Source: Candidatus Zixiibacteriota bacterium (GTDB lineage: Bacteria; Zixibacteria; MSB-5A5; GN15; FEB-12). From it: a stretch of DNA of 64,000 nucleotides. Positions 27,364-48,775 of this stretch are shown piece by piece. The notes under the pieces are model-generated. The model had not been told where the DNA came from. It saw only the letters and a program-made list of their open reading frames with translations, and searched no databases. Made by a program: the position numbers and the translations under genes. Location of the stretch: assembly GCA_022571845.1 (NCBI GenBank), contig JACZXB010000001.1, forward strand, positions 459,037 through 523,036, written 5' to 3'. How positions within the stretch are numbered: position 1 is the first letter of the stretch; each line of letters opens with the position of its first letter.

Positions 27364-27867
27364 TTATTCTCCGAAGCCCTGTGACATATTTGCTTCCTCA
27401 ACTACTCCCCAATCTTTCTGATAATAACCTCTTGCCAAATAATCATGAATCGACGAATGTTCATGCTCAAACGGGCTTCGCGTCAATCCATGCTTGACCG
27501 GATTGTAATGTATATAATCCAAATGCTTTTTTAAATCATCTTCGTTACGAATAATATGATCCCAGAATCTGTGCTGCCAGACCCTGCCGCTAGTTAGTCC
27601 TAATTTTGAGCGATACAGACCGGAAAACTTCTGCTTTATGCCTTTCATAATTTTTGAGATGTCGTTCTGCATTGTGTCAATTATAAGATGGAAATGGTCG
27701 GGTAGTATCACCCAGGCCTTAAGACCCAATGGGAATTTTGCTTTGGTATGATTCAGCGCCGCCCAAAATTCATTTATGTTCTTGATGAGAATAGGCTTTC
27801 GGTTTAACGTTACGCAGGTGACGAAGATTTCTTTGCCGTTCGGATTATATCGCCGAAGATTTGACAC
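27364..27867 (-). CDS. REP-associated tyrosine transposase (RAYT, IS200/Y1 HUH family)
   Basis: It is colinear with E. coli TnpA-REP (YafM). The HUH motif is LPDHFHLII, and other motifs are RFWDH and the catalytic-Tyr motif DYIHYNPVKHG. The start is GTG. Confidence 0.9.
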   Translation of the reverse strand: MSNLRRYNPNGKEIFVTCVTLNRKPILIKNINEFWAALNHTKAKFPLGLKAWVILPDHFHLIIDTMQNDISKIMKGIKQKFSGLYRSKLGLTSGRVWQHRFWDHIIRNEDDLKKHLDYIHYNPVKHGLTRSPFEHEHSSIHDYLARGYYQKDWGVVEEANMSQGFGE

Positions 27868-36051: not shown

Positions 36052-37248
36052 TTAGATTTTTCCAATGATGTCGAACATTGGCAGATACATAGCTATCAAT
36101 ATACCACCAATGACAATACCCATAAATACAATAATGATTGGCTCTATTATAGAAGTCAGAGCAGTTACAGCTTCATCCACTTCTTCGTCATAGAAATCTG
36201 CAATCTTGCTGAGCATGTCATCCAGGCCACCTGTCTTTTCACCAACAGCAATCATTTGAGTGACCATTGGAGGAAAAACTCCAGATTCTTTCAGCGGGCC
36301 GGTAATCGTATCACCTTCGGCGATTGACAGAACTGACTTGTTTATCGCGTTTGCGATAACCACGTTACCTGCGGTTTTAGCAGTAATCTCCATAGCTTCA
36401 ATAATTGACACACCAGACGATAGCAGGGTTCCCAAGGTACGAGTAAACCTTGCCACCGCAGATTTTCTAATCAAGTTTCCAAATATTGGTGTCATAAGCA
36501 TGAACTTATCAAATAGAAGCGCACCAGTCGGAGTTTTCTTCCACCATAAAAGACCGACAACAGATCCTATCGAACCGACTATCAGGTAAAGAAAGTAGTC
36601 TTGCAAGAAATGCGAAATTCCCAAAACATACTGAGTAGGCATCGGCAGTTCCGCGTTTAGCCCTCCGAACATCTTAGCAAAGACAGGAACGATAAACGTC
36701 AACATACCAACTGTTACACCAGCGGCCACTACTACGATAACGGACGGATAGACCATGGCGCCTTTTACCTTACGAATCAGCTGGTCTGATTTTTCGCGAT
36801 ATGCTGCCAAACGCATAAGAATGACATCCAGTGCACCACCGACCTCACCTGCCTGTACCATATTTGAATAGAGCTGGTCAAATACTTTGGGATGGCGTGC
36901 CAGAGCATCGGCCAGAGTAGCACCGCCCTGTACACCTTCTTTTACCTGTGTGATAACCTTAGCGAGTTCAACACTATCAGTCTGAGACGCCATGATTTCC
37001 AAGCATTGGACCATGGGCAGCCCGGCGCCAATCATGGTAGCAAACTGGCGGGTAAACCGGGATATATCTAAGCGACTTATGCCGGTTCCGAATTTTATGT
37101 TTAGGTCCGGAGCTTTCCTGGTTATCGAGGTAACCAGAATACGGTTCTGCCTTAAAACACGCTCAAGATCCTCTTTGCTTTTCGCTTTAAGCGAGCCCTG
37201 GACTGGTGCTCCGGCTAATGTTTTTCCTTTGTATTCAAAAACTGCCAT
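36052..37248 (-). CDS. pilC: Type IV pilus platform protein PilC (GspF family)
   Basis: It shows the duplicated T2SS-F architecture with three TM segments and motifs such as GEVGGALD and GEKTGGLDDML. Confidence 0.9.
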   Translation of the reverse strand: MAVFEYKGKTLAGAPVQGSLKAKSKEDLERVLRQNRILVTSITRKAPDLNIKFGTGISRLDISRFTRQFATMIGAGLPMVQCLEIMASQTDSVELAKVITQVKEGVQGGATLADALARHPKVFDQLYSNMVQAGEVGGALDVILMRLAAYREKSDQLIRKVKGAMVYPSVIVVVAAGVTVGMLTFIVPVFAKMFGGLNAELPMPTQYVLGISHFLQDYFLYLIVGSIGSVVGLLWWKKTPTGALLFDKFMLMTPIFGNLIRKSAVARFTRTLGTLLSSGVSIIEAMEITAKTAGNVVIANAINKSVLSIAEGDTITGPLKESGVFPPMVTQMIAVGEKTGGLDDMLSKIADFYDEEVDEAVTALTSIIEPIIIVFMGIVIGGILIAMYLPMFDIIGKI

Positions 37249-37275
37249 TTACTTAGCCTCTTTCAACCTGCACAA

Positions 37276-38373
37276 CTAACTGAATGCAGGAGATCTTTGA
37301 ACTTTACTTTTCTGGAGCATTTCCGTCAACTCCTGAGTTGAACCGCTATGCGCCATTGCATCGTTTATTGTAATTTTGCCGGTCTCGTATAATTCTGCCA
37401 GTGATTGATTCATTGTCTTCATGCCATATTTTTGCCCGGCCTGTATCATGGAATACAGTTGATGAACTTTATCATCACGTATCAGTGCCCGAATAGCAGG
37501 CGTTACCACCAATATTTCCATGGCCAACACACGTCCGCCGCCAATTTTGGGAATCAACGTCTGTGATACTATCGCCTGAAGAGTGAACGAAAGCGTAACC
37601 CGTACTTGCTCCTGCTGATTTGCGGGAAAAGAATCTACTATTCTGTTGACAGATTCTGCAGCAGAGTTTGTATGCAATGTAGCAAAAGCAAGGTGTCCGG
37701 TCTCTGAAATTGATAGCGCCGACTCAATTGTCTCCAGATCTCTCATCTCACCCACCAGTACTACATCTGGGTCTTCCCTTAACGCGTATTTTAGAGCTGT
37801 GGCGAAAGAGGCTGTGTCAGAATACACCTCGCGCTGGTTAACCAGAGATTTCTTATGGCGATGCAGGTATTCAATCGGGTCTTCTATGGTAATTATATGA
37901 ACGGCTCTTTCTCTGTTAATTTTGTCAATCACAGACGCCAGGGATGTTGATTTCCCTGAACCGGTGGGTCCGGTAATGAGTACCAGCCCGCGAGGAAGAT
38001 CTGCAAAATCCGCGATTACTTTGGGCAATCCGAGCTCTTCAAACGTCTTTACTTCATAAGGAATCTGCCGCAGTACCACTGCAACGTTGCCTCGCTGCAT
38101 GAACATATTGGCGCGAAACCTGCTCATCTGCTCAATTCCGAATGAAAAATCCAGTTCGGAGTTTTGTTCAAATTTGAGCTTCTGCTTTTCGTTGAGCATC
38201 GTATAAGCTATCTTCTTGGTATCTTCACTTGTCAGCGGGTCATAATTCAGAGGCTGAAGCTTTCCATCGACCCGGACGACCGGAGGAGCCCCGACAGTAA
38301 TATGTAAATCAGAAGCTCCCATCTTGAACATTTCTTCAAGCAGTTCACGCAGACCTACCATGGTTTTCCCCAT
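37276..38373 (-). CDS. pilT: Twitching-motility retraction ATPase PilT
   Basis: The N-terminus contains GASDLHITVGAPPVVRVDG. Walker A is GPTGSGKST. Other motifs are VGEMRDLETI and ATLHTNSAAESVNRI. Confidence 0.9.
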   Translation of the reverse strand: MGKTMVGLRELLEEMFKMGASDLHITVGAPPVVRVDGKLQPLNYDPLTSEDTKKIAYTMLNEKQKLKFEQNSELDFSFGIEQMSRFRANMFMQRGNVAVVLRQIPYEVKTFEELGLPKVIADFADLPRGLVLITGPTGSGKSTSLASVIDKINRERAVHIITIEDPIEYLHRHKKSLVNQREVYSDTASFATALKYALREDPDVVLVGEMRDLETIESALSISETGHLAFATLHTNSAAESVNRIVDSFPANQQEQVRVTLSFTLQAIVSQTLIPKIGGGRVLAMEILVVTPAIRALIRDDKVHQLYSMIQAGQKYGMKTMNQSLAELYETGKITINDAMAHSGSTQELTEMLQKSKVQRSPAFS

Positions 38374-38502
38374 ATTTAAACGGTTTAATCGGCTCTTTGG
38401 ATACTTACTATTTATCGGTAAAAAACGAAGGTTCCTTGAGTTTTATTTGTAGAATCAGGGCTGTAAGTTGCTGAAAGACAAAGCCCTACAATAGCGATAT
38501 TT

Positions 38503-40203
38503 TTATATGACAGACGCCGTATTGGCGAAGACCTCATCAATGCTGACCAGACCCTGCTTCATCTTTTCAATAGCAGACATGCGCAGGCTGTACATACCTT
38601 CATCCAGGGCCGTCTTTTGAATTTGAGCATCGCTGCCTCTATCAAGAATCAGCTTTTCAATAGCTTGGGATATAGGCATGATTTCAAATATAGCTGTTCT
38701 GCCCGACTGTCCGGAATCACCGCACTCGTCGCAGCCAGTTCCTTTGAAAGCTCTTAGATTTGACAAGCAGATTGACGGTACGCCGAGACTCTCTACTTGA
38801 TCTTTAGTCAGATTGATCTCCGTTTTACAGTTCTGGCAGATTTTTCGAACCATTCTTTGTGCCAATATTAATTTTGTGGCCGAAGCTACCAGATAAAACG
38901 GTACATCCATATCCATCAAACGGTTAATAGATGACGGAGCATCATTAGTATGCAAGGTGGAAAAGACAAGGTGACCGGTAAGAGCTGCGCGAATGGCTAT
39001 TTCTGCTGTCTCGCCGTCACGAATTTCTCCAAGCATTATAATATCCGGGTCCTGTCGCAAAAACGACCTGAGGGTATTTGCAAATGTTAGACCTATATCG
39101 GATTTGACAGCGACCTGATTGATGCCATCGAAGTTAAATTCAACGGGGTCTTCGGCTGTCATAATATTAACGTCCACAGTATTGATTGTTTTTAAGGCAG
39201 AATACAAAGTCGTAGTTTTACCGGAACCCGTCGGTCCGGTAACCAAAATTATGCCATATGGCAGGTGAACAGCTCTTCTGAAACTATCGAGATCTTCGGT
39301 TCTAAATCCGAGCTTGGTCATATCGACCATCAAAGCCATCGGGTCCAGGATTCGCATGACAACTTTTTCTCCGAATATCGTTGGCAGACAAGAAACACGA
39401 AGGTCTACTGTTCTTCCGGCGATTTTGACTTTTACACGGCCGTCCTGAGGCAGACGACGTTCGGATATATCCAGCTCTGCCATAATTTTAATACGTGAAA
39501 TAATCGCCGCCCTGTACTTGAAAGGCAGTGGCGGCAGTTCTCGTAAATCACCGTCTACACGGTAGCGGACACGAATCCGCTTTTCATAGGTTTCAAGGTG
39601 AATATCAGAGGCTCCTATTCGAATAGCATCGGCAATTATTGAATCAACCAGTTTTACCAGCGGCTTATCCTGAATGGCAGAAAGCAGGTCAGACTCATCA
39701 GGAGCCGACTCACTTGAGACTACTTCTAAACTATCATCCGCATCAAGGCTGGCAACAATGTCAGAAAGCGCTCCTGTATCTCTATACTGTGCTTCGATAG
39801 CTTTTTCGATGGCGTTTTCGGGTGAAATGACTGGCTGAACGGTGCAGCCAGTTATAAATTTTATAGCGTCTAATACATAAACATTATTGGGATCACCTAT
39901 AGCGACCAGAAGGTTTTTGCCAATTTTCGAGATTGCTATGACTTTGAACTTGCGGGCGATATCCAGCGGAATCATCTTGACGATATCCGGATTCAGCTCA
40001 ATGTCACTAAGCTTAAGGGCGCCAATCTTCAAGTGCTTTCCGATAAACTGCGCTATGTCATATTCTGACTCAACAGCGCCGATTTTGACCAGGGCAGCTT
40101 CAAATTTCTCGCTCTCGCTTTTGACCAGCTTTAGCGCTTTGTCGGCCTGTTCCTGAGTAATCTTGCCGTGTTTTACTAGTATGTTGCTGAGTTCTATAGC
40201 CAT
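38503..40203 (-). CDS. pilB: Type IV pilus assembly ATPase PilB (GspE family)
   Basis: It has an N-terminal T2SSE_N-like domain, GASDIHLE, Walker A GPTGSGKTT, LGEIRDGETA, and the tetracysteine CQNC..CDEC. Confidence 0.9.
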   Translation of the reverse strand: MAIELSNILVKHGKITQEQADKALKLVKSESEKFEAALVKIGAVESEYDIAQFIGKHLKIGALKLSDIELNPDIVKMIPLDIARKFKVIAISKIGKNLLVAIGDPNNVYVLDAIKFITGCTVQPVISPENAIEKAIEAQYRDTGALSDIVASLDADDSLEVVSSESAPDESDLLSAIQDKPLVKLVDSIIADAIRIGASDIHLETYEKRIRVRYRVDGDLRELPPLPFKYRAAIISRIKIMAELDISERRLPQDGRVKVKIAGRTVDLRVSCLPTIFGEKVVMRILDPMALMVDMTKLGFRTEDLDSFRRAVHLPYGIILVTGPTGSGKTTTLYSALKTINTVDVNIMTAEDPVEFNFDGINQVAVKSDIGLTFANTLRSFLRQDPDIIMLGEIRDGETAEIAIRAALTGHLVFSTLHTNDAPSSINRLMDMDVPFYLVASATKLILAQRMVRKICQNCKTEINLTKDQVESLGVPSICLSNLRAFKGTGCDECGDSGQSGRTAIFEIMPISQAIEKLILDRGSDAQIQKTALDEGMYSLRMSAIEKMKQGLVSIDEVFANTASVI

Positions 40204-40278: not shown

Positions 40279-40770
40279 TTAGTCCTGAAAAATATCGTCC
40301 AGCTTTTCCTGAGCACGCTCGACAAAATCACCTTCAACAGCGCTCTTACGGCCTGAGGCAGACTTCTCTTTTATCTCCTCAAAAATCTTAGTTAAGCCGT
40401 TAGCGGTTTCCTTGGCATATAGGCGGACCATTCCGATTGTTGTACGGTCGTCAAAAATAACTACTAAAATTGAACGATCTCCGACTATAGACATGTGGAT
40501 ATGGTCTTTCTTGCCTTGATGAAATAAAACCGAAAACTCCGGTTCGCCGACCAGCCTTGCTATCTCTTTTGTCGAAGCAAACGAACCGGCCAGAAGGGCT
40601 GCCAGCGCAGTAGTATCAAGAGAGTGCGTGAACCCCAGACGGGTAATAAGGTGGCCGTCTTTATCGACCAACAGAGCACACTTTGCTTCTGCTCCTTTAA
40701 GCATCTTGGATATCAGAGCTTCTATCTGATTTATTTCTTCTTCGTAAATTATCAGGCTATCATCAGACAT
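40279..40770 (-). CDS. mglB: MglB (Roadblock/LC7 GTPase-activating partner of MglA)
   Basis: It is colinear with Myxococcus MglB, with motifs YEEEINQI, LLVDKDGHLI, LDTTALAALLAG, ILVVIFDDRTTIGMVRL and LTKIFEE. Confidence 0.85.
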   Translation of the reverse strand: MSDDSLIIYEEEINQIEALISKMLKGAEAKCALLVDKDGHLITRLGFTHSLDTTALAALLAGSFASTKEIARLVGEPEFSVLFHQGKKDHIHMSIVGDRSILVVIFDDRTTIGMVRLYAKETANGLTKIFEEIKEKSASGRKSAVEGDFVERAQEKLDDIFQD

Positions 40771-40787: not shown

Positions 40788-41987
40788 TTATTTAATTCCA
40801 AACAATTTCTTAAATATGCTGCGCTTCTTCTGCTCTCGTCGTTTAAGCGAAGGCGCCATCTTGGGAGCGTGTGTACCATAATCTTCCATAGCGGCCGAAT
40901 CGCCTGAGGCTGAATCACTACTTGTGATATTTTTTTCACTTTGATTCATGCCGGGATACGGTCTATCATCCATTTCAGAATTTTCCTCTCCTGAAGGGTC
41001 CGCCTGTTTTGCGCCCGGATAAGGACGATACGCAGGAATTCTGTCGTCAGTCGCCGATGTCGCCGGCGTATCGGCTGTAGCCACTTCGGCTGATGGTTGG
41101 CCCTGAACCTGAGGAGTAGCAGTCGGCGCTGCATAGGGATCGTTACCTAAGGGTTGAACCGAAGGATCGGCCAGCGGCCCATCTGGGTCTGGCTGACCGG
41201 CTGGCGGGGCTACAACTTGAGCAGAAGGCTCTGCTACAGCCGGCTGTGATACCGCAGGTGCCTGAGGCGCCGCAGGCACCTGAGGTGCCGCAGGTGCCTG
41301 AGGTGCCGCAGGTGCCTGAGGTGCCGCAGGTGCCTGAGGTGCCGCAGGTGCCTGAGGTGCCGCAGGTGCTTCGACAGCTGTTTTCGAAGTATTGCTTGAT
41401 ACCTGAGAATTTTTAGCTTTTTCCAGGACAAGTTTGATAATCAGTTTGAGCGTATCAAAAACTCCAGTTCCCACAGTAGCTGAAGCCTCAAAAGTAGGGA
41501 AATTATAAGTATTAAGCTTTTGATCCATCTCTTCCGTTGTCATTATATTGGGAAGGTCTCGTTTGTTATATTGAATGACCAGTGGCAGCTGACTAATATC
41601 GTAACCATATTCTTTGAGGTTATCTATCAGGTTCGCCAAAGCTTCAATATTTTCGTCCATTTTGTCAGGCTGACTGTCAGCAACAAATACAACGCCGTCT
41701 ACACCCCGCAAAACTAATTTACGAGTAGCATTGTAGTAGACCTGGCCGGGCACAGTATAGAGCTGAAACTTGGCCTGAAATCCATTGATTGTACCAATAT
41801 TAATTGGTAGGAAATCAAAATAGAGAGTCCGGTCTGCTTCAGTCGCCAGAGATATAAGATCTCCACGTGTTGTGCTGGGCACTTTGGTGTGGACATATTG
41901 CAAGTTGGTAGTCTTGCCCGATAAGCCCGGACCATAATAGACAATTTTGCAGCAGACCTCTCGCGCCGAGTAGTTTATTGATACCAT
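40788..41987 (-). CDS. mglA: MglA-family Ras-like GTPase with a roughly 200-aa proline-rich C-terminal extension
   Basis: Residues 1-195 are near-colinear with M. xanthus MglA ([68 protein letters not shown]). An (APAAPQ)n low-complexity tail follows. Confidence 0.9.
41252..41368 (-). repeat. 18-bp in-frame tandem repeat, about 6.5 copies, encoding (APAAPQ)n
   Basis: The plus-strand unit CCGCAGGTGCCTGAGGTG is repeated head to tail. Four central copies are identical, and the first two carry 1-2 substitutions. Confidence 0.95.
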
Positions 41988-42013: not shown

Positions 42014-42355
42014 TTAACTTACCGTTTTTAATCGTGATATTGCGTTCTTAATTTCAAGTCGGATTAGACCAATATTCACTTCTTTATCTGTAGTTACTAC
42101 CAAAATGCCGAGTCCGGCATCGCTGAAAAATAGCTTGGCGTCATCAGCTTCTATTGTAACATGTTTTAAAGGGCTGCTCTGGAGACGCTTCAATGATTTG
42201 TGGATGTTGGCTGTTATCGATGCCGCCAGGGCTCCGATTGTGTCGTCTTCCACATTTTCCTGCAGGTTTGCCGCAATAACGATACCATCATTGCCGACCA
42301 CCATTGAGCCGGTAATGCCAGTTGTTTTGTTAAGTTCACTTAGTATTTCATGCAT
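42014..42355 (-). CDS. Stand-alone Roadblock/LC7 domain protein (MglC-like)
   Basis: The 113-aa product has GITGSMVVGNDGIVIA..DTIGALAASI..FFSDAGLGILVVTTDKEVNIGLIRLEI. It overlaps the upstream gene by 8 nt. Confidence 0.75.
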   Translation of the reverse strand: MHEILSELNKTTGITGSMVVGNDGIVIAANLQENVEDDTIGALAASITANIHKSLKRLQSSPLKHVTIEADDAKLFFSDAGLGILVVTTDKEVNIGLIRLEIKNAISRLKTVS

Positions 42356-43331
42356 ATGATTTCTCCATTGCCGGGCGCAGCATCTCGCTGTACCTCTCGG
42401 ACATATATTTCTTAACCATTTCCATTGCTTGATTTATGCGAATATTTAATAAATCATCACTATGTCTTTCTGCTATTACCATAAGACAATATGACTCTTC
42501 ATAGCAGAGGACTACCCTGTCATTACTTAACTGAAATTCTACTCTTTCCGGACAGCCGTAGCTAAGGAAGTTCATGCTTCCGGCTCCGTCTGCCTTAATA
42601 AGCAAAGCAAAGGGAGCAACATCCTCTGCAATTATTCCGCCGCGTGTAAAGTTCGATAACAGCAGACCTTCATGGTCAACTACTGCGGCCAGCTTAACAG
42701 AGCTATGTTCACCAATATATCTGGTAGCCTTATCAAATCCCTGAGCGTCTCCGCCAATCACTGGTGACTCTGTTGCAGGTCGGTTTTCGAGACCTGATTG
42801 ATTCTGAACCGGACTGGGAGGCGGAGAATCGGGTCTGCTAGCGTTTTTTTCTTTAGTAACTACAAAGGTAGAAGTTCCGGTCTCTACTGAATCAGCTGTG
42901 ATAATATCTGACGGCCGTGGGCGACGAATACGCGGTCGACTGAAAAATATCTCATCCATAGTGCTCTTGATTATGAACTGGGTTGCAAAAACCTGGAAAA
43001 GCAAACTCGGCAAATATCCGTACATCCCCATAGAAAAGGCAACACCGCTGCTTATGTTATAAAAGGCAGAAAGCAAAACAGAAAATATTGAACTTATTAG
43101 CAATCTGTAGCCCAGCCCAATAAAAACGATTGCTACCATTTGCATGGCGTTACCCTGTCTGTATAAAACGAAAGTAAGCAGCAAATAGAAAAGAAGCTCC
43201 AGGACAATATTAGTCGAAGAATAGTTCTGCAGAAATGTTCCGAGGTTTTCCGGATACAATATCAGCGGCACGACCAATAAGATTAGCGAATACAACAGTA
43301 GTCGTTTTGCAGCTTCAACTGATAAGTTCAT
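42348..43331 (-). CDS. Polytopic membrane protein with a C-terminal Roadblock/LC7-like domain
   Basis: It has about 5 TM helices in the first 130 aa, then a Pro/Ser linker, then KLAAVVDHEGLLLSNF..APFALLIKA..VVLCYEESYCLMVIAERHSDDLLNIRINQAME. Confidence 0.6.
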   Translation of the reverse strand: MNLSVEAAKRLLLYSLILLVVPLILYPENLGTFLQNYSSTNIVLELLFYLLLTFVLYRQGNAMQMVAIVFIGLGYRLLISSIFSVLLSAFYNISSGVAFSMGMYGYLPSLLFQVFATQFIIKSTMDEIFFSRPRIRRPRPSDIITADSVETGTSTFVVTKEKNASRPDSPPPSPVQNQSGLENRPATESPVIGGDAQGFDKATRYIGEHSSVKLAAVVDHEGLLLSNFTRGGIIAEDVAPFALLIKADGAGSMNFLSYGCPERVEFQLSNDRVVLCYEESYCLMVIAERHSDDLLNIRINQAMEMVKKYMSERYSEMLRPAMEKSYA

Positions 43332-44212
43332 ATAGCACCTGCTGTTTTTGCATAATTTGACATCAGTCCGTCAATTTTCATGCGAACGTTGCCCAAATTA
43401 GCTTTTTTACCTGCCACGAAAATAAAAATACCTTTAGAGTTCTGATTTATATAAAAAGTTGATTCTGCTGCTTCTATAAGAACGTTTTGCACGTTGCCAA
43501 AGGAGTTATTTACAAGTTCACTGCTGAGCATTTTCCAGATTTCTGACAAAACAGCCCCGCAGTCATTTACTTCCAGAGGACTTCTCCATTCAGAATCAGC
43601 TACCAGACCGTCCTGGCTAACAAGCATAGCGCCTTTTAGTCCTTTTATTGTCAGAGCTTCGGTAAGCATGTCATGCAGTTCAAATGGCTTGGCTGGCTTA
43701 GTTTCTGTTTCATCTATCCTGTCAGCTGAATCTGAGCTGCTGCCTGACGGGGCTCCGGTAATTATGGTCTCGTCCAAATAGGCATTTTGTTCTTCCGGAA
43801 TTTTCTGTGCAATCTCCAGTAGTTTTTGAATCTGCGGATTTTCGGGGTCGCGGCTGAGGAGTTCCTTCAAGAGCTTTATGGCATGCGAAAATTCGCCTTT
43901 ATAGATGTAGATTTCTGACAGTAGAAGTTCAACTGAGCGGGTACGACCGTCAAGATCAGCTGCACGTTTGGCTTCAATCTCTGCCCAGTCATATTGACCA
44001 CGGTCGAGATTTATTTTAGACATAACGACATGAGCAGAGCCGTAATCGTCATGCACTTTCAGTCCGTTTTTACACACTTTAAATGCCAGGTCCAAGTCTC
44101 CCTTTTTGCGATATGCCTCCGCCAAGGCGGCAAAAATCTGTGAGTTAGGATCAGAGTCTAAAATTCTCTGACACTTCTCTATTCTATCATCTAATTCTGA
44201 TACAGTCGCCAT
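43328..44212 (-). CDS. TPR repeat + Roadblock/LC7-like fusion protein
   Basis: N-terminal TPR-like repeats read AEAYRKKGDLDLAFKVCKNGLKV and SEIYIYKGEFSHAIKLLKELL. The C-terminal domain reads LKGAMLVSQDGLVADS..GAVLSEI..IFIFVAGKKANLGNVRMKI. It overlaps the downstream gene by ATGA. Confidence 0.65.
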   Translation of the reverse strand: MATVSELDDRIEKCQRILDSDPNSQIFAALAEAYRKKGDLDLAFKVCKNGLKVHDDYGSAHVVMSKINLDRGQYDWAEIEAKRAADLDGRTRSVELLLSEIYIYKGEFSHAIKLLKELLSRDPENPQIQKLLEIAQKIPEEQNAYLDETIITGAPSGSSSDSADRIDETETKPAKPFELHDMLTEALTIKGLKGAMLVSQDGLVADSEWRSPLEVNDCGAVLSEIWKMLSSELVNNSFGNVQNVLIEAAESTFYINQNSKGIFIFVAGKKANLGNVRMKIDGLMSNYAKTAGAI

Positions 44213-44326: not shown

Positions 44327-44698
44327 TCAGCTTAACGTATTTCTGGCGCTAAAAACCCCAAATGCAAAAAGTCCCGACATCAGAAGCAGCATTAATGGAG
44401 CAAATAGCTCCGGCAGTGTAAAAAACTCCATCGCCGAAGCGATACTTGCCAGCTGGCTTATAGCCAGAAGCACGAAACCAAGGAAAAACATCTGCCAGCT
44501 CCTGCTCAGATAACCACCTTTTACCTGTCCCAGTACCTGGAAAGAACCAAACAAACAGGCTCCGGCAACTATCAATACGAACAGGCTGAACATCGTCGGC
44601 GGACTGGCTATAACTGCCAGGTTGGCGGCCTGGACATCACTGCCCAACCCTGCACTAATTAAAATTCCAATAAATAAACACTTTTTCATCTTAATCAC
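44327..44698 (-). CDS. Small membrane protein (signal peptide + 3 TM)
   Basis: The signal ends DVQAA and three hydrophobic helices follow. It overlaps the DUF4388 gene by 8 nt. Confidence 0.55.
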   Translation of the reverse strand: MIKMKKCLFIGILISAGLGSDVQAANLAVIASPPTMFSLFVLIVAGACLFGSFQVLGQVKGGYLSRSWQMFFLGFVLLAISQLASIASAMEFFTLPELFAPLMLLLMSGLFAFGVFSARNTLS

Positions 44699-45896
44699 CT
44701 CGTACCATATGAACTACTTTTTCTGCCCTTTTTAAGGATCTATAGTAATCGTTTTCTATTCCATATTTCTTGACTAAATCTCGCTTCTTTGCCAGCGGCT
44801 CGGATATTTCTCTTTTTACTCCGTTAAGCGTGCGCCGGAATGGACCTTCGCCCAAAATCATGAATACATATTCCAGTTGTTCGGTGAGCATGCCGGTTAA
44901 ACCGCTAAGCAATACATGCACCCGGATATGAGTAGGAATTGATCTGACTGCGCTAAGGAATTTTTCCTGTGAGGGCATCAATTCTGAGCCCGGATCTACC
45001 CCCGGAAAATAACTCAAAATTCCTGAGCGATACTGAGAAGCAAAATTTGAAAACCTGGTGTTGTTCTCTCCCAGTAAATCCTCTACCGTAGTACGAATCC
45101 TGTAAAAGGCGTTGCTGAACAGATAAAAGATTAGAGACAGAACCGCTTCTTCTTCATCCTCTTTTTCTTCAGAACTTTCTTCCCGTTCGCCAGTTACTTC
45201 TATCAAATTTCCTAATATCAACTTGTAAACTGCACGACAAGTGACGAACTCTCCAAAAGGCGAAGCTTGTATCATTTCCGGCAAAGTTCTTTCGCCATTT
45301 ATCATAGACAGTACCCGAAATTCTTCCATAGTCAGTCTGACTTCATCACTGTTTGTCTTGGGTGAAGCGACTACAGACAACATCATTTCATCTGGCGGCA
45401 GCACCTTTTGAATTTCCAGCCATTCATCAATACGGCGGGTACCTTCCATGACGATACTCATGGTGGTGAGCTCTACTAAAAAAGGTGCGTTTTTGGGACT
45501 GGTGCCTTCGTGGAAAACGAAGTTTCCTTCCTGCCAAGAAAACAAATTATAGACTATTTCTTCAATTTGGAATTTCAGACACTCTGCGATTTCATCTTTT
45601 TCAAAAAGATTCATATCCACCAGTGTGGTACCCAGCTGTCTGCCGGTCTGCTTGTGCAGAGTTATGGCACGCTCTAACTGGTCCTTGGAAAGTTTTCCCT
45701 TACGCAGCAGCATATTCCCCAGCAAATCTTCGCTAGTATTTAATGACGAAGCGTAAATGATGTTGCCGTTTTTAAACGCTACTTCCTTTTGCCTGGCACT
45801 GGTGTTTACTTCCAGAACTCCTGTCTTCTTGCCAGTTGACAATAACTGCAGGATATCCGAGAATGAGACTGTTTTTAAATTCCCTGACAAACTCAT
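44691..45896 (-). CDS. DUF4388 (PATAN-like) domain protein
   Basis: The N-terminal hallmark is GNLKTVSFSDILQLLSTGKKTGVLEV....VAFKNGNIIYASS. It is the first gene of the MglA block. Confidence 0.7.
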   Translation of the reverse strand: MSLSGNLKTVSFSDILQLLSTGKKTGVLEVNTSARQKEVAFKNGNIIYASSLNTSEDLLGNMLLRKGKLSKDQLERAITLHKQTGRQLGTTLVDMNLFEKDEIAECLKFQIEEIVYNLFSWQEGNFVFHEGTSPKNAPFLVELTTMSIVMEGTRRIDEWLEIQKVLPPDEMMLSVVASPKTNSDEVRLTMEEFRVLSMINGERTLPEMIQASPFGEFVTCRAVYKLILGNLIEVTGEREESSEEKEDEEEAVLSLIFYLFSNAFYRIRTTVEDLLGENNTRFSNFASQYRSGILSYFPGVDPGSELMPSQEKFLSAVRSIPTHIRVHVLLSGLTGMLTEQLEYVFMILGEGPFRRTLNGVKREISEPLAKKRDLVKKYGIENDYYRSLKRAEKVVHMVRGD

Positions 45897-46000: not shown

Positions 46001-46669
46001 TCAAAACTGAGAGACTTGGAAACTACTGTCAGTTCGGTTCTTAAGCTTGATCCGACAGCCTCCGGTTTGCCCAATATCCGTAACTATTTTCTGGTATTTT
46101 TCAGCAGGCAAAAAACCAGCGTCTTTCTGTTCAATTCTTGAACAGACCAGCTGCTCTAAGTTGCTTTGACTTTCGATAATTTTTTCAATTTCCGAGCGGG
46201 CGATCTTACTTCTTCCGCAATAAATAACCAGTGACTGCTTTGCTAAGGAAACTTTATTATCCCCGGACAGAATATTCTCATTTGCTATCAATATCGATGA
46301 ATTATCCAATTCAAGCTCTATTAGATTTTTCGAGGGATAATAGCCCGGCAATAATTTATTAGAATTCTCTGCCGAAAATGACTCAATCGTGATTGTGCCG
46401 TAATTTGCAAAAAGTGTCCGGCTGATGTCCGAAAAGCTCTTTTCTATCCTGGCGTCTACTATGACAGATTTGGCCTGATAGCTAAGGCAGAGTCTGTAAA
46501 TGTCATCGATAGCTCCATACTCCGATGACATCACAAAAACCTGGCCGAGCCCCTCCACACCTAATTCATCAAAGGCCGAGCTGAAAATTCGTTCATCTAT
46601 TGGGTACGGTTTCCGAGTCAAGCCGCTGATTATCAAGTCTGGCACCTGGCTTTGATTCTGATAAATCAA
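46001..46669 (-). CDS. Hypothetical protein, possibly a degenerate C-terminal (MBL-like) remnant of ComEC/Rec2
   Basis: Only a TTG start is available. The frame stays open upstream to the stop at 46736 and there reads IDIFNIPGGTAILIY..LIISG, which resembles the DVGQGDAxLI..LIDxG entry of the ComEC lactamase domain. The C-terminus TDIGQTGGCRIKL resembles TDxxGAI. The metal ligands are not conserved. Confidence 0.4.
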   Translation of the reverse strand: MIYQNQSQVPDLIISGLTRKPYPIDERIFSSAFDELGVEGLGQVFVMSSEYGAIDDIYRLCLSYQAKSVIVDARIEKSFSDISRTLFANYGTITIESFSAENSNKLLPGYYPSKNLIELELDNSSILIANENILSGDNKVSLAKQSLVIYCGRSKIARSEIEKIIESQSNLEQLVCSRIEQKDAGFLPAEKYQKIVTDIGQTGGCRIKLKNRTDSSFQVSQF

Positions 46670-46762
46670 AATTGCAGTGCCACCGGGAATGTTAAAAATA
46701 TCGATTGTGCAAAAGTCATTAGAGCGGGAGCGTAGCTACCCCCGCTCAGATTCAATTATTAG

Positions 46763-46791
46763 TTGACATTTGGTGGTGCTCTGATTATATA
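46763..46791 (+). promoter_or_regulatory. Sigma70-type promoter (TTGACA-N17-TATATA)
   Basis: There is a perfect -35 at 46763-46768, a 17-nt spacer, and a -10 TATATA at 46786-46791. Confidence 0.55.
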
Positions 46792-46797
46792 CCAAAT

Positions 46798-46888
46798 GTA
46801 AGGGTCATAGAACCTTTGCATTGGAAACTCCTTTCTTTTCGCTTGAGTGTTTCCAAATTTGGCCGGTAGCTCAAACTACCGGCTTTTT
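46798..46888 (+). ncRNA. Candidate small RNA of about 90 nt, bounded by a promoter and a terminator
   Basis: It starts about 7 nt after the -10 and has no ORF (ATG-TAA only). Internal hairpins are CCAAATG..CATTGG and GGAAACTC..GAGTgTTTCC. It ends in the terminator at 46861-46888. Confidence 0.35.
46861..46888 (+). terminator. Intrinsic terminator
   Basis: The sequence is gGCCGGTAGctcaaaCTACCGGC followed by TTTTT. Confidence 0.65.
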
Positions 46889-47034
46889 ATAATATCTGTA
46901 CACCCCAAATTTAAGTCAAGTACTTTTTAAATTAAGTTACAATTTATATTCCCCACAAGTCGGGCATATTAACTGATTTGGCGGTAGCTGTAAGGGCTTC
47001 AACTAAAAGCAGTTACGTGCCCAACAGATTTTAC

Positions 47035-47062
47035 TTGACAAAGCCCGATAAATATGTAGCTT
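47035..47062 (+). promoter_or_regulatory. Possible sigma70-type promoter for the HTH-like gene
   Basis: It reads TTGACA-N16-TAGCTT, where the -10 keeps only T1, A2 and T6. It lies about 40 nt upstream of the GGAGG-ATG. Confidence 0.35.
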
Positions 47063-47102
47063 TGCGTTGTCATTACTTAAGCGAAAAACAGGAGGACTTA
47101 CA

Positions 47103-47669
47103 ATGGTAAAAGGTATCGGAAATGACCCTATGGTAAAAGCTCTGACTAAAGAGCTTGAAGAAATACTTCGTAGGGCGGCAGAGATTAAAAAATTCATCAA
47201 TGACACTTACGTTTATCGGGGAGCTTCTCCACTCTATACAGATGTTGATTATGTCCCCGCTGGCGGTACACTAAACCTTGCTCACGATCAATATTTTGGT
47301 AAAGGGCTGGCTACTGCTGGAAAAGAATTTCTTCAAGCTAAGGGACGGGCTGCCCCCTCTGACGAAATTTTTGAAGCTTTCAATAAAGGAGGCTTCGAGT
47401 GGCCTACAAACTGGAAAGAACGAGACAGATTAAAGAATCTTGCAATATCACTAAGCAAGAATCGCTATGATTTTGTTATTGTTCGAACAAGCAAAGGCCA
47501 AGCGTATGGATTGTATGAATTCTATCCTGAAAAAATGAAAGAAAGGGAACGGAAAAAACAGGGGAAATCTAATGAAACTGAGTCTGCCAATAATGGCTCC
47601 CCCGCAACAATTGAAAAGGTTGAATCAACAGAAACTAAGATTGAAGAGAGTAAAAATGAGGGGAATTAA
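47103..47669 (+). CDS. Hypothetical DNA-binding protein with a HARE-HTH-like winged-helix core and a Lys/Glu-rich tail
   Basis: The ATG at 47103 lies 7 nt after GGAGG. The track ORF starts at an upstream TTG. The segment AGKEFLQAKGRAAPSDEIFEAF...YDFVIVRTSKGQAYGLYEFYPE follows the HARE-HTH pattern (compare RpoE ..WGLRSWYP). This assignment rests on pattern recall only. Confidence 0.55.
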   Translation: MVKGIGNDPMVKALTKELEEILRRAAEIKKFINDTYVYRGASPLYTDVDYVPAGGTLNLAHDQYFGKGLATAGKEFLQAKGRAAPSDEIFEAFNKGGFEWPTNWKERDRLKNLAISLSKNRYDFVIVRTSKGQAYGLYEFYPEKMKERERKKQGKSNETESANNGSPATIEKVESTETKIEESKNEGN

Positions 47670-47699
47670 TTTGACTTTAAAGGCTGTATAGTCTACTTA

Positions 47700-47960
47700 G
47701 TGAACGGGCGGGTAATGCCCTGCCTCCCAAAATTATGTTGTCCGTCACACAACGGAGAATAGGGCGGCTCCAGTTGTGACGGAGCCCAAGTAAGCAGTGA
47801 AGCTTACCTGTACAACATAATGGAGGTGCTAATGCAAAGTACCCCAAAGGACAATCTTGCCAAGATTGTCTTGGGCTCAATCACTCGGATAGTGATAGAG
47901 CTTATTCGGAAACTGTTTTAGTAGAAAGAGGCAGGGTAACCCCGCCTATAATTTTGGGAA
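47700..47960 (+). ncRNA. Candidate structured RNA (multi-helix, family not recognised)
   Basis: Nested perfect helices are 47707-47726/47928-47946, 47732-47741/47812-47821, and hairpins at 47741-47783, 47790-47807, 47843-47875 and 47880-47896. An alternative 11-bp pairing joins 47726-47736 and 47948-47958. I chose the plus strand because a hairpin with a T7 run follows at 47996-48020. Confidence 0.45.
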
Positions 47961-47995
47961 ATTCGCTCCTTTCAGTATCTTACAATACCAATTTC

Positions 47996-48020
47996 ACTTG
48001 ACTCATTCAAGTCTTTTTTT
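47996..48020 (+). terminator. Weak intrinsic terminator
   Basis: The sequence is ACTTGActcatTCAAGT, then c, then TTTTTTT. The stem is 6 bp and AT-rich. Confidence 0.4.
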
Positions 48021-48128
48021 GCTAAAAGTCAAACTATTTTTTGCTCCTACCAAAAAATATGTCGGCCAAATTCCCTTAACTCTTAGCAATCCCCATACCT
48101 ATTGTACACTTTTTGCCCCAAAAATAGA

Positions 48129-48156
48129 TTGACAGAGATGGGATAGCCAGTATTCT
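48129..48156 (+). promoter_or_regulatory. Possible sigma70-type promoter (TTGACA-N16-TATTCT)
   Basis: The -35 is perfect. The -10 ends 7 nt before the ATG at 48164, which implies a leaderless mRNA. Confidence 0.4.
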
Positions 48157-48163
48157 TGAGATT

Positions 48164-48424
48164 ATGCAGGTAGTGCTCAATAAAGCTCAGAAAGTGATTC
48201 TTATAATCAGCTTAGCTCTGATAGCTTTCTCTTTTCTATTCCCAACGTGGGAATTTCGCCGAACGGAAATCACCAGAGTCTTAAAGAGGGTTGATTATCA
48301 ATTTATTCTTGCTCCCCCCAAATATAAGACACATCCGATGCAAATAGACTATGGCCGTATGCTGATCCAGATAGTGGTTATCGTAATTGTCGGGGGTGGA
48401 TTGATTCTTGTTAAGAAGTCTTAG
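48164..48424 (+). CDS. Small two-TM membrane protein, unknown function
   Basis: The 86-aa product has TM1 VILIISLALIAFSFLF and TM2 LIQIVVIVIVGGGLILV. There is no Shine-Dalgarno sequence. Confidence 0.5.
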   Translation: MQVVLNKAQKVILIISLALIAFSFLFPTWEFRRTEITRVLKRVDYQFILAPPKYKTHPMQIDYGRMLIQIVVIVIVGGGLILVKKS

Positions 48425-48439
48425 CAATTCTCAAAAATC

Positions 48440-48775
48440 TCAAAATAGCCCACTACCAAATATTTGATAGGTTTGCTTCTCCGAAATAAATCGGGCAACA
48501 TGATTTGAACCAAAATTATAGGTTTTGAGACCGTAATGAAAACCGCTGAAAAAAAAGAGACAAAGAGCAAATAAGATAATCGAAAACCGGGCTGACTCTT
48601 TTTTAAACAGAACCAGTCCGCCAATAAACGAAATCAGACAGAGCAGCAGGAAGAGCCAGCCTGGCGGGCGGACAAAATCTGTGAACAGAATTCCGGCCAC
48701 TACCGGAATCAGAAAAAAAAGACCAGGATATTTTTTTAGCACAACTACATACGGAAAATAATTTTCAGGATCCAC
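48440..48775 (-). CDS. Truncated ComEC/Rec2 N-terminal (DUF4131-like) fragment
   Basis: LKKYPGLFFLIPVVAGILF plus two more TM helices and ..HVARFISEKQTYQIFG resemble the start of ComEC. The ORF stops after 111 aa. The GTG start overlaps the murJ end, and an alternative GTG lies at 48742. Confidence 0.45.
   Translation of the reverse strand: MDPENYFPYVVVLKKYPGLFFLIPVVAGILFTDFVRPPGWLFLLLCLISFIGGLVLFKKESARFSIILFALCLFFFSGFHYGLKTYNFGSNHVARFISEKQTYQIFGSGLF

Follow-up and report, generated by a model that had tools for sequence, protein, structure and literature searches.

The minus strand of a 64,000-nucleotide (nt) stretch of contig JACZXB010000001.1 from a Candidatus Zixiibacteriota bacterium (the window, to which all coordinates refer) carries two adjacent genes whose products each end in a Roadblock domain. 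TM-Robl, our name for the product of the open reading frame (ORF) 43331..42348 (327 amino acids, aa), joins this domain to a four-helix membrane domain, while TPR-Robl, the product of ORF 44212..43328 (294 aa), joins it to TPR repeats. Both genes are tightly packed and apparently co-transcribed with a third Roadblock gene, with mglA and mglB, and with pilus motor genes across the phylum. Read along the minus strand, the gene order is a PATAN/cyclic di-GMP (c-di-GMP) protein, a small membrane protein, TPR-Robl, TM-Robl, Robl113 (the name we use for the stand-alone 113-aa Roadblock protein that follows TM-Robl), MglA, MglB, PilB, PilT and PilC. A scan of one genome per GTDB species gave 56 loci; almost all of them carry a Zixibacteria label or lie in bins with doubtful labels. 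The ten-gene order is the same in every locus with a sufficiently long contig, and mglA-mglB directly adjoins the genes for TPR-Robl, TM-Robl and Robl113 in all loci that include them. Promoter and terminator scans did no better than chance and set no limits to the operon; the terminator scan found no intergenic terminator-like sites between 45896 and 36052.

The TM-Robl gene (42348..43331) is supported by the ORF list, by its 83 homologues of about 325 aa (E down to 1e-199), by 194 cluster representatives and by the 56 loci. With only those 194 matches in a profile search of 1.84 billion proteins, themselves cluster representatives, the family is a small one. The closest homologues of both TM-Robl and TPR-Robl, at 94-98% identity, are encoded in metagenome-assembled genomes that carry the label candidate division Zixibacteria. 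Because the two genes are conserved across the phylum, we regard them as real and rejected chance ORFs or assembly artefacts as their source. Two database homologues, P0028 and P0083, from contigs of 2.8 and 1.7 kb, in which the TM-Robl Roadblock domain lies behind unrelated N-termini, were set aside as probable assembly chimeras or truncated gene calls. NCBI records label TM-Robl ‘hypothetical protein’, so annotation at Pfam thresholds misses such divergent Roadblock domains; among the records of TM-Robl and TPR-Robl homologues, some are already automatically annotated as ‘Roadblock/LC7/MglB family’.

The membrane domain of TM-Robl spans residues 5-129 (42945..43319, minus strand). Hydropathy and the AlphaFold2 (AF2) model agree on four helices, at residues 5-25, 40-56, 62-91 and 95-129, the last of them kinked at G105/P108. 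An earlier interpretation made from the letters of this DNA (the sequence-only reading) had counted about five helices, which is one too many, yet its description of the protein as polytopic holds, given several membrane-spanning helices and a consistent distribution of charge. Averaged over the family, the N-terminus has 1.8 lysines plus arginines, loop 2 has 1.4 and the segment behind helix 4 has 4.2, all on the cytoplasmic side, compared with 1.3 and 0.4 in the two short outer loops. These positive-inside counts fit a topology with both termini inside the cell and a Roadblock domain predicted to be cytoplasmic. Across 39 family members whose identity is only 30-50%, four residues in or at the helices are invariant, namely E45, Y49 and R76 (within 43104-43199) and P108 (43008-43010). 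With invariant polar residues inside it, the membrane domain is probably more than a passive anchor, and their conservation suggests a specific role within the membrane, for example in a helix-helix contact or as a site for an ion or a partner. Profile searches of Pfam, NCBIfam and PDB returned nothing credible for this domain; matches to CHASE8, FliP and others did not rise above noise and were rejected. The helices are followed, at residues 130-197 (42741..42944), by a basic cluster, RPRIRRPRP, and a disordered linker rich in proline and serine, as seen from the family alignment and the predicted local distance difference test (pLDDT) scores. This linker of about 65 residues, with pLDDT below 50 at residues 133-195, varies in both length and sequence across the family.

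The C-terminal part of TM-Robl, residues 198-318 (42378..42740), is a Roadblock domain, as the sequence-only reading had proposed, and its membership in the Roadblock/LC7 superfamily rests on profile and fold evidence rather than on a single-sequence threshold. The peptides quoted in that reading for TM-Robl and TPR-Robl do occur in the two ORFs, which lie at the coordinates it gave. The AF2 model shows the order alpha-beta-beta-alpha-beta-beta-beta-alpha at a pLDDT of 85-91. A Foldseek search with this model has Myxococcus xanthus MglB (6hjm) as its best match, with E 1.5e-7, a TM-score of 0.82 and a probability of 1.00, followed among the top matches by Asgard Roadblock proteins, a Streptomyces Roadblock protein of the CvnB type and LAMTOR2. 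The protein of the window has no Pfam or NCBIfam match of its own, including none to Robl_LC7 (PF03259) at the gathering score. Among 39 family members, 10 do match this model when E values up to 1 are allowed (the best being 1.4e-5), and the profile of the family matches the dynein Roadblock light chain 9y6s at E 0.005.

TPR-Robl (43328..44212, minus strand) was identified from the ORF list, its homologues and an AF2 model with a mean pLDDT of 81 over the whole protein. A homologue search returned 702 matches, the best 120 of which are about 290 aa long. Its TPR domain takes up residues 1-152 (43757..44212), with approximately four repeats. Five Pfam models exceed their cut-offs here: TPR_2 (35.1 bits, cut-off 27), TPR_14 (35.1, cut-off 23.5), TPR_19 (33.6, cut-off 25), TPR_7 and TPR_8. 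Together with the eight helices that AF2 places at residues 4-152, they confirm the TPR-like repeats noticed from the letters; the family profile and Foldseek likewise match consensus TPR proteins and structures. A disordered linker (pLDDT below 50 at residues 148-175) leads to the second domain, residues 179-290 (43343..43678), which was also first suspected to be a Roadblock domain from its sequence and is now identified as one by fold and family profile. The Robl_LC7 model scores 22.3 bits on residues 183-266, just below the cut-off of 23, and a PF03259 match is precomputed for many orthologues. The profile of 45 family members over residues 182-289 matches Asgard Roadblock 7yh1 (E 1e-4), 7f8m, LAMTOR2 and CvnB5. 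In the AF2 model the domain has the same alpha-beta-beta-alpha-beta-beta-beta-alpha order as that of TM-Robl, and Foldseek finds LAMTOR2 as the best match (TM-score 0.83-0.85), with MglB at 0.72. Conservation is much higher in the TPR half than in the Roadblock domain attached to it (mean p-distance 0.31 versus 0.57), as would be expected if the TPR half binds a conserved ligand.

Robl113 (42014..42355, minus strand) consists of a Roadblock domain only, with 51.7 bits to Robl_LC7 and a PDB match to Roadblock 7yh1 at E 3e-8, and has about 75% identity across the phylum. Among the matches listed in a search with this protein, all homologues have at least 73% identity, and every source name points to Zixibacteria except for one record labelled Calditrichaeota; these matches did not reveal the gene module in other phyla. 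The start of the Robl113 gene lies within the end of the TM-Robl gene, in an 8-nt overlap, ATGCATGA (42355-42348), and the TM-Robl stop and Robl113 start overlap by 8, 17 or 20 nt in each of 54 loci. Behind P0295, a divergent TM-Robl of 298 aa, and behind P0336, a soluble homologue of the TM-Robl Roadblock domain with 147 aa, there is likewise an overlapping Robl_LC7 gene, for a product of 112-125 aa. We looked up four divergent or soluble TM-Robl relatives, which lie on contigs of 0.6-1.7 kb that show only the following Roadblock gene. On its other side, TM-Robl overlaps TPR-Robl by the four nucleotides ATGA (43331-43328), from which the sequence-only reading had suggested translational coupling. 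That overlap is indeed present, but just three of the related loci have it, each of them from the clade of the window, and it gives way elsewhere to gaps of 1-21 nt. Given the conserved overlap of TM-Robl with Robl113 and the overlapping gene behind the soluble homologue, the gene organisation speaks for a pair of TM-Robl and Robl113 no less strongly than for a TM-Robl/TPR-Robl heterodimer.

Robl113 is central in the profile-profile comparison of the accessory Roadblock domains. With hhalign, its profile matches the TPR-Robl Roadblock domain with a probability of 97% (E 3.5e-11) and that of TM-Robl with 78% (E 1.8e-5), whereas between the two fused domains the figure is just 3%. Robl113 also evolves slowly, with a p-distance of 0.24 as against 0.49 for the TM-Robl domain and the 0.57 of TPR-Robl. 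We also compared the pairwise distances of the domains in 33 species by a mirror-tree analysis, using partial correlations controlled for the distances of PilB and PilT; its outcome is taken up below.

The GTPase and its partner that follow these genes, named as neighbours by the sequence-only reading, are both canonical. MglA (399 aa, 40788..41987, minus strand) has a G domain at 41409-41987; its residues 3-193 align to M. xanthus MglA at 270 bits, and the alignment shows the equivalents of the intrinsic residues Arg53 and Gln82. MglB (163 aa, 40279..40770, minus strand) is a canonical GTPase-activating protein (GAP) partner with 136 bits to M. xanthus MglB, in a match that spans residues 5-162 and includes the C-terminal helix, and 50.6 bits to Robl_LC7. 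The presence of this canonical pair means that the extra Roadblock proteins are not simply the GAP, and neither TM-Robl nor TPR-Robl matches the NCBIfam model of MglB (NF052242).

Downstream of its G domain, MglA carries a disordered tail rich in proline and alanine (40788-41408), with APAAPQ repeats in the window. Such a tail is present in every locus: it is 117-220 residues long, of low complexity, rich in alanine, proline and serine, and predicted to be disordered. Two short elements stand out in it. The first, YRPYPG (41013-41030), is conserved within the otherwise variable tail; [YF]RP[YF]PG occurs in 37 of 52 MglA tails, and the core RP[YF]PG in 12 other tails that we inspected. This motif is a candidate ligand for the TPR domain of TPR-Robl. 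The second is the end of the tail, KKRGFFKRLFGIK in the window, whose last 13 residues (40791-40829) closely resemble the membrane-targeting sequence (MTS) of E. coli MinD, KGFLKRLFGG (PMC5471200). The consensus of this end in about 50 loci is MAPS[LV]...KKRGFFKRLFG[IL]K, with the variants KKR(G/S)(F/I)FK(R/K)LFG(I/L)K, and it is conserved in essentially all Zixibacteria loci examined, including L001 (11334-12476) and L003 (11371-12306). The sequence-only reading had proposed for TM-Robl the role of giving the GTPase switch its membrane address; this is only part of the picture, since MglA itself has a conserved MinD-like end and TM-Robl would thus have company in supplying that address. Long, flexible linkers seem to hold both the GTPase and one of the Roadblock proteins at the inner membrane.

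Beyond MglB, the cluster continues with pilB, pilT and pilC (36052..40203, minus strand), encoding the ATPases and platform protein of a type IV pilus; they were assigned from their ORFs and from orthologue matches to the Pfam families MshEN and T2SSE, T2SSE, and T2SSF, respectively. At the other end, the PATAN/DUF4388 protein (44691..45896, minus strand; PF14332, 117 bits) has an inserted segment at residues 59-110 (45567-45722) with a c-di-GMP-binding motif of the MshEN type (NF053729, 51.1 bits, cut-off 38), which suggests that c-di-GMP could be an input to the module. Between this gene and that for TPR-Robl, in every locus that covers the position, lies the gene for a small membrane protein of 120-123 aa (44327..44698 in the window, minus strand), recognised by hydropathy, alignment and position. 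It has an N-terminus resembling a signal peptide, three hydrophobic helices and a conserved RGGxLSKSWQ loop; no family match was found for it. At 46001-48775, comEC is broken in the genome of the window into an N-terminal remnant of 111 aa (48775..48440) and a C-terminal one of 222 aa (46669..46001). The approximately 1.7 kb between them hold two plus-strand ORFs, 47067..47669 and 48164..48424, which have no Pfam match and are found in none of the related loci. ComEC is intact in the nearest relatives (L004-L006), matched over about 730-760 residues. An IS200-like Y1 transposase (PF01797, 38 bits) is encoded at 27364-27867 on the minus strand, among metabolic genes downstream of the pilus cluster.

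Taken as a whole, the locus leads us to lean modestly towards reading TM-Robl and TPR-Robl as accessory Roadblock subunits of a Zixibacteria-wide MglA/MglB polarity module tied to the type IV pilus motor genes, in which they would form a membrane-tethered platform regulating MglA at the base of the pilus. Building on the domain identities, topology, conserved operon, gene overlaps and MglA tail motifs described above, the model would work as follows. TM-Robl sits in the inner membrane with its four helices, both ends in the cytoplasm and its Roadblock domain on the disordered linker, and TPR-Robl is soluble, its highly conserved peptide-binding TPR module being joined to another domain of the Roadblock type. 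Such domains pair by way of the edge of their beta-sheet and helix alpha2, and we infer from this mode of pairing that those of TPR-Robl, TM-Robl and Robl113 could assemble into the platform. The platform would dock MglA, the MglB GAP or both at the cytoplasmic face of the membrane near the pilus base, where MglA would itself be held by the amphipathic MinD-like end of its 117-220-residue tail. The TPR arm would bind a conserved peptide, for which the xRP[YF]PG motif of the MglA tail is one candidate and a component of the pilus another. In this way the platform would control where and when MglA-GTP activates pilus assembly driven by PilB, and the PATAN/MshEN-motif protein encoded upstream would add the c-di-GMP input. 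Several observations weigh against this model. The TM-Robl Roadblock domain is very divergent, with hhalign probabilities that fall from the 78% to Robl113 through the 3% to the TPR-Robl domain to 0.4% for MglB, and may have lost its function related to the GTPase. The invariant E45 and R76 in the membrane domain are left unexplained by a platform. The mirror-tree partial correlations between domains are weak (0.1-0.4) and single out no partner for TM-Robl, and membrane binding by MglA is predicted from the similarity of its tail end to that of MinD.

As a rival explanation, TM-Robl and Robl113 may form an obligate pair, a heterodimer like LAMTOR2/LAMTOR3 that is anchored by the fused membrane domain, with TPR-Robl as a homodimer or a separate layer rather than the direct partner of TM-Robl. 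This arrangement, a serious possibility that we nevertheless stop short of favouring, draws on the overlap of the two genes in all 54 loci, compared with the three for the ATGA overlap with TPR-Robl, on the overlapping Robl_LC7 gene behind both the 298-aa divergent TM-Robl and the 147-aa soluble homologue, and on a TM-Robl profile that is nearer to Robl113 than to TPR-Robl. Gene overlap speaks of co-translation, however, and not of contact; Robl113 evolves slowly and the TM-Robl domain fast, with a mirror-tree correlation of 0.13 between them; and the TPR-Robl domain is closer still to Robl113, so that Robl113 could pair with either protein. The heterodimer of TM-Robl and TPR-Robl that the sequence-only reading had put forward, and in which the membrane would bear the TPR module directly, seems to us unlikely. 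The two genes are adjacent and no more than 21 nt apart in all loci, with the ATGA overlap in the clade of the window, both fused domains evolve similarly fast, unlike Robl113 and MglB, and both retain the full fold with its C-terminal helix. Set against these points are the lack of conservation of the ATGA overlap, the negligible profile-profile similarity between the two domains and their mirror-tree partial correlation of 0.15.

Other explanations concern what the accessory proteins do rather than how they pair. Instead of serving as a scaffold, they might change the nucleotide state of MglA, either as an exchange factor or by sequestering MglB as RomR and MglC do in Myxococcus, and so create a zone close to the membrane in which MglA-GTP is protected. 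There are precedents in eukaryotic Roadblock/longin platforms that act as canonical or non-canonical guanine nucleotide exchange factors (GEFs), such as Ragulator (PMC3747258), and in M. xanthus, where RomR sequesters MglB (PMC13408092) and the Roadblock protein MglC binds it (PMC7949163). The coexistence of a complete MglA/MglB pair with three extra Roadblock proteins also agrees with this role. The sequences hold nothing, though, that would separate it from passive scaffolding, and we know of no catalytic signature for GEF or anti-GAP activities of this sort; on balance we consider it rather unlikely. We find it more improbable again that the proteins are independent of the GTPase, with Roadblock domains that are generic dimerisation modules and membrane and TPR parts that act directly on pilus assembly (PilB, PilT, PilC) or on the small membrane protein. 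The invariant E45, Y49, R76 and P108 at the membrane helices would suit such a direct role, as would the conserved small membrane protein, whose gene lies two places upstream of that for TM-Robl, and the presence of pilBTC in the same cluster. The characterised prokaryotic Roadblock proteins cited here (MglB, MglC and the conservon protein CvnB), on the other hand, work with GTPases of the MglA type (PMC4316618), and the three Roadblock genes directly abut mglA-mglB wherever the locus covers them.

Several known systems come close to this locus. MglB of M. xanthus and Thermus thermophilus has the same Roadblock fold, which is the best structural match of the TM-Robl domain, and is encoded next to mglA and type IV pilus genes; it is, however, a soluble single-domain protein free of membrane or TPR fusions, and the true MglB of the operon is the 163-aa protein at 40770..40279 rather than TM-Robl or TPR-Robl. 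The design resembles the MglC/RomR-type adaptors of Myxococcus (PMC7949163, PMC10329633, PMC13408092), in which the Roadblock paralogue MglC links MglB to RomR (PMC7949163, PMC10329633). Like the accessory proteins proposed here, MglC is an extra, non-GAP Roadblock protein and an adaptor in an MglA polarity module, but it is soluble, has a single domain and works with RomR, whereas the Zixibacteria locus has three accessory Roadblock proteins, two of them fused. Profile and PDB searches detected no sequence relationship of TM-Robl, TPR-Robl or Robl113 to MglC. In the Streptomyces conservon CvnA-D (PMC13343842, PMC4316618), a bacterial operon likewise combines a membrane protein, a Roadblock protein and a GTPase of the MglA family, yet the membrane protein is a sensor resembling a histidine kinase and is separate from the Roadblock protein, and there is neither a TPR protein nor any pilus gene. 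The TPR proteins SgmX of M. xanthus (PMC7519303) and Bd2492 of Bdellovibrio (PMC3983030) are MglA partners that act with the GTPase in controlling type IV pili; the papers describe them as TPR proteins and report no Roadblock domain, and the comparison is one of descriptions, the matches of the TPR-Robl repeats being generic. Multidomain Roadblock proteins and those below the Pfam threshold are already known in principle, as in the Response_reg-Robl_LC7 fusions described by Wuichet and Sogaard-Andersen (PMC4316618). These also have a C-terminal Roadblock domain, in some cases below the Pfam threshold, but their N-terminal part is a receiver domain in place of the membrane domain or TPR repeats of Zixibacteria.

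The closest eukaryotic parallels are Ragulator/LAMTOR and the yeast EGO complex, which bring several Roadblock domains to a membrane as a docking platform for small GTPases, a likeness by analogy only. In Ragulator, four Roadblock domains form a membrane-anchored assembly that serves the Rag GTPases (PMC5680233, PMC10933270); the Zixibacteria cluster has four Roadblock genes together with MglA (those for TPR-Robl, TM-Robl, Robl113 and MglB), and LAMTOR2 is the best structural match of the TPR-Robl domain. The anchor of Ragulator is a separate lipidated subunit, LAMTOR1, in contrast to the fused four-helix domain in Zixibacteria, and Rag GTPases carry Roadblock domains of their own, which MglA does not. 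By Pfam, NCBIfam and locus comparisons, nothing in the cluster resembles LAMTOR1, which like Ego1 is a lipid-anchored subunit wrapped around Roadblock heterodimers, and common descent of the Ragulator and Zixibacteria proteins is not evidenced beyond the shared domain superfamily. It is conceivable, if doubtful, that Zixibacteria possess a bacterial counterpart of the tail-tethered small GTPases of eukaryotes that act under a membrane-anchored Roadblock platform. A three-subunit complex with a four-helix anchor and a TPR arm reading xRP[YF]PG in the MglA tail would then set where MglA is active at the base of the type IV pilus, as an independent bacterial solution of the Ragulator type; MglA would be kept on the inner membrane by its MinD-type amphipathic helix, at the end of a long tail like a eukaryotic hypervariable region.

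In the searchable library, our literature search found no paper that combines Zixibacteria and MglA, and no account of a Roadblock protein anchored by four helices, of a TPR-Roadblock fusion or of an MglA with a MinD-like or membrane-targeting tail. In Myxococcus, the best-studied model, MglA and MglB are soluble and reach the cell poles with the help of RomR/RomX and MglC. The Zixibacteria locus represents a conserved, phylum-wide alternative to the Myxococcus arrangement, with a GTPase that apparently has a membrane-binding end of its own. Encoded between a putative c-di-GMP receptor and mglA-mglB-pilBTC are three extra Roadblock proteins, of which one is integral to the membrane and another is fused to TPR repeats. 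The locus offers testable parts for the attachment of a prokaryotic Ras-like switch to the membrane, namely a cytoplasmic Roadblock domain, a TPR domain, a short motif and a putative MTS. It also provides a bacterial comparison for Roadblock platforms of the Ragulator type, and is relevant both to bacterial polarity and to the evolution of small-GTPase regulation.

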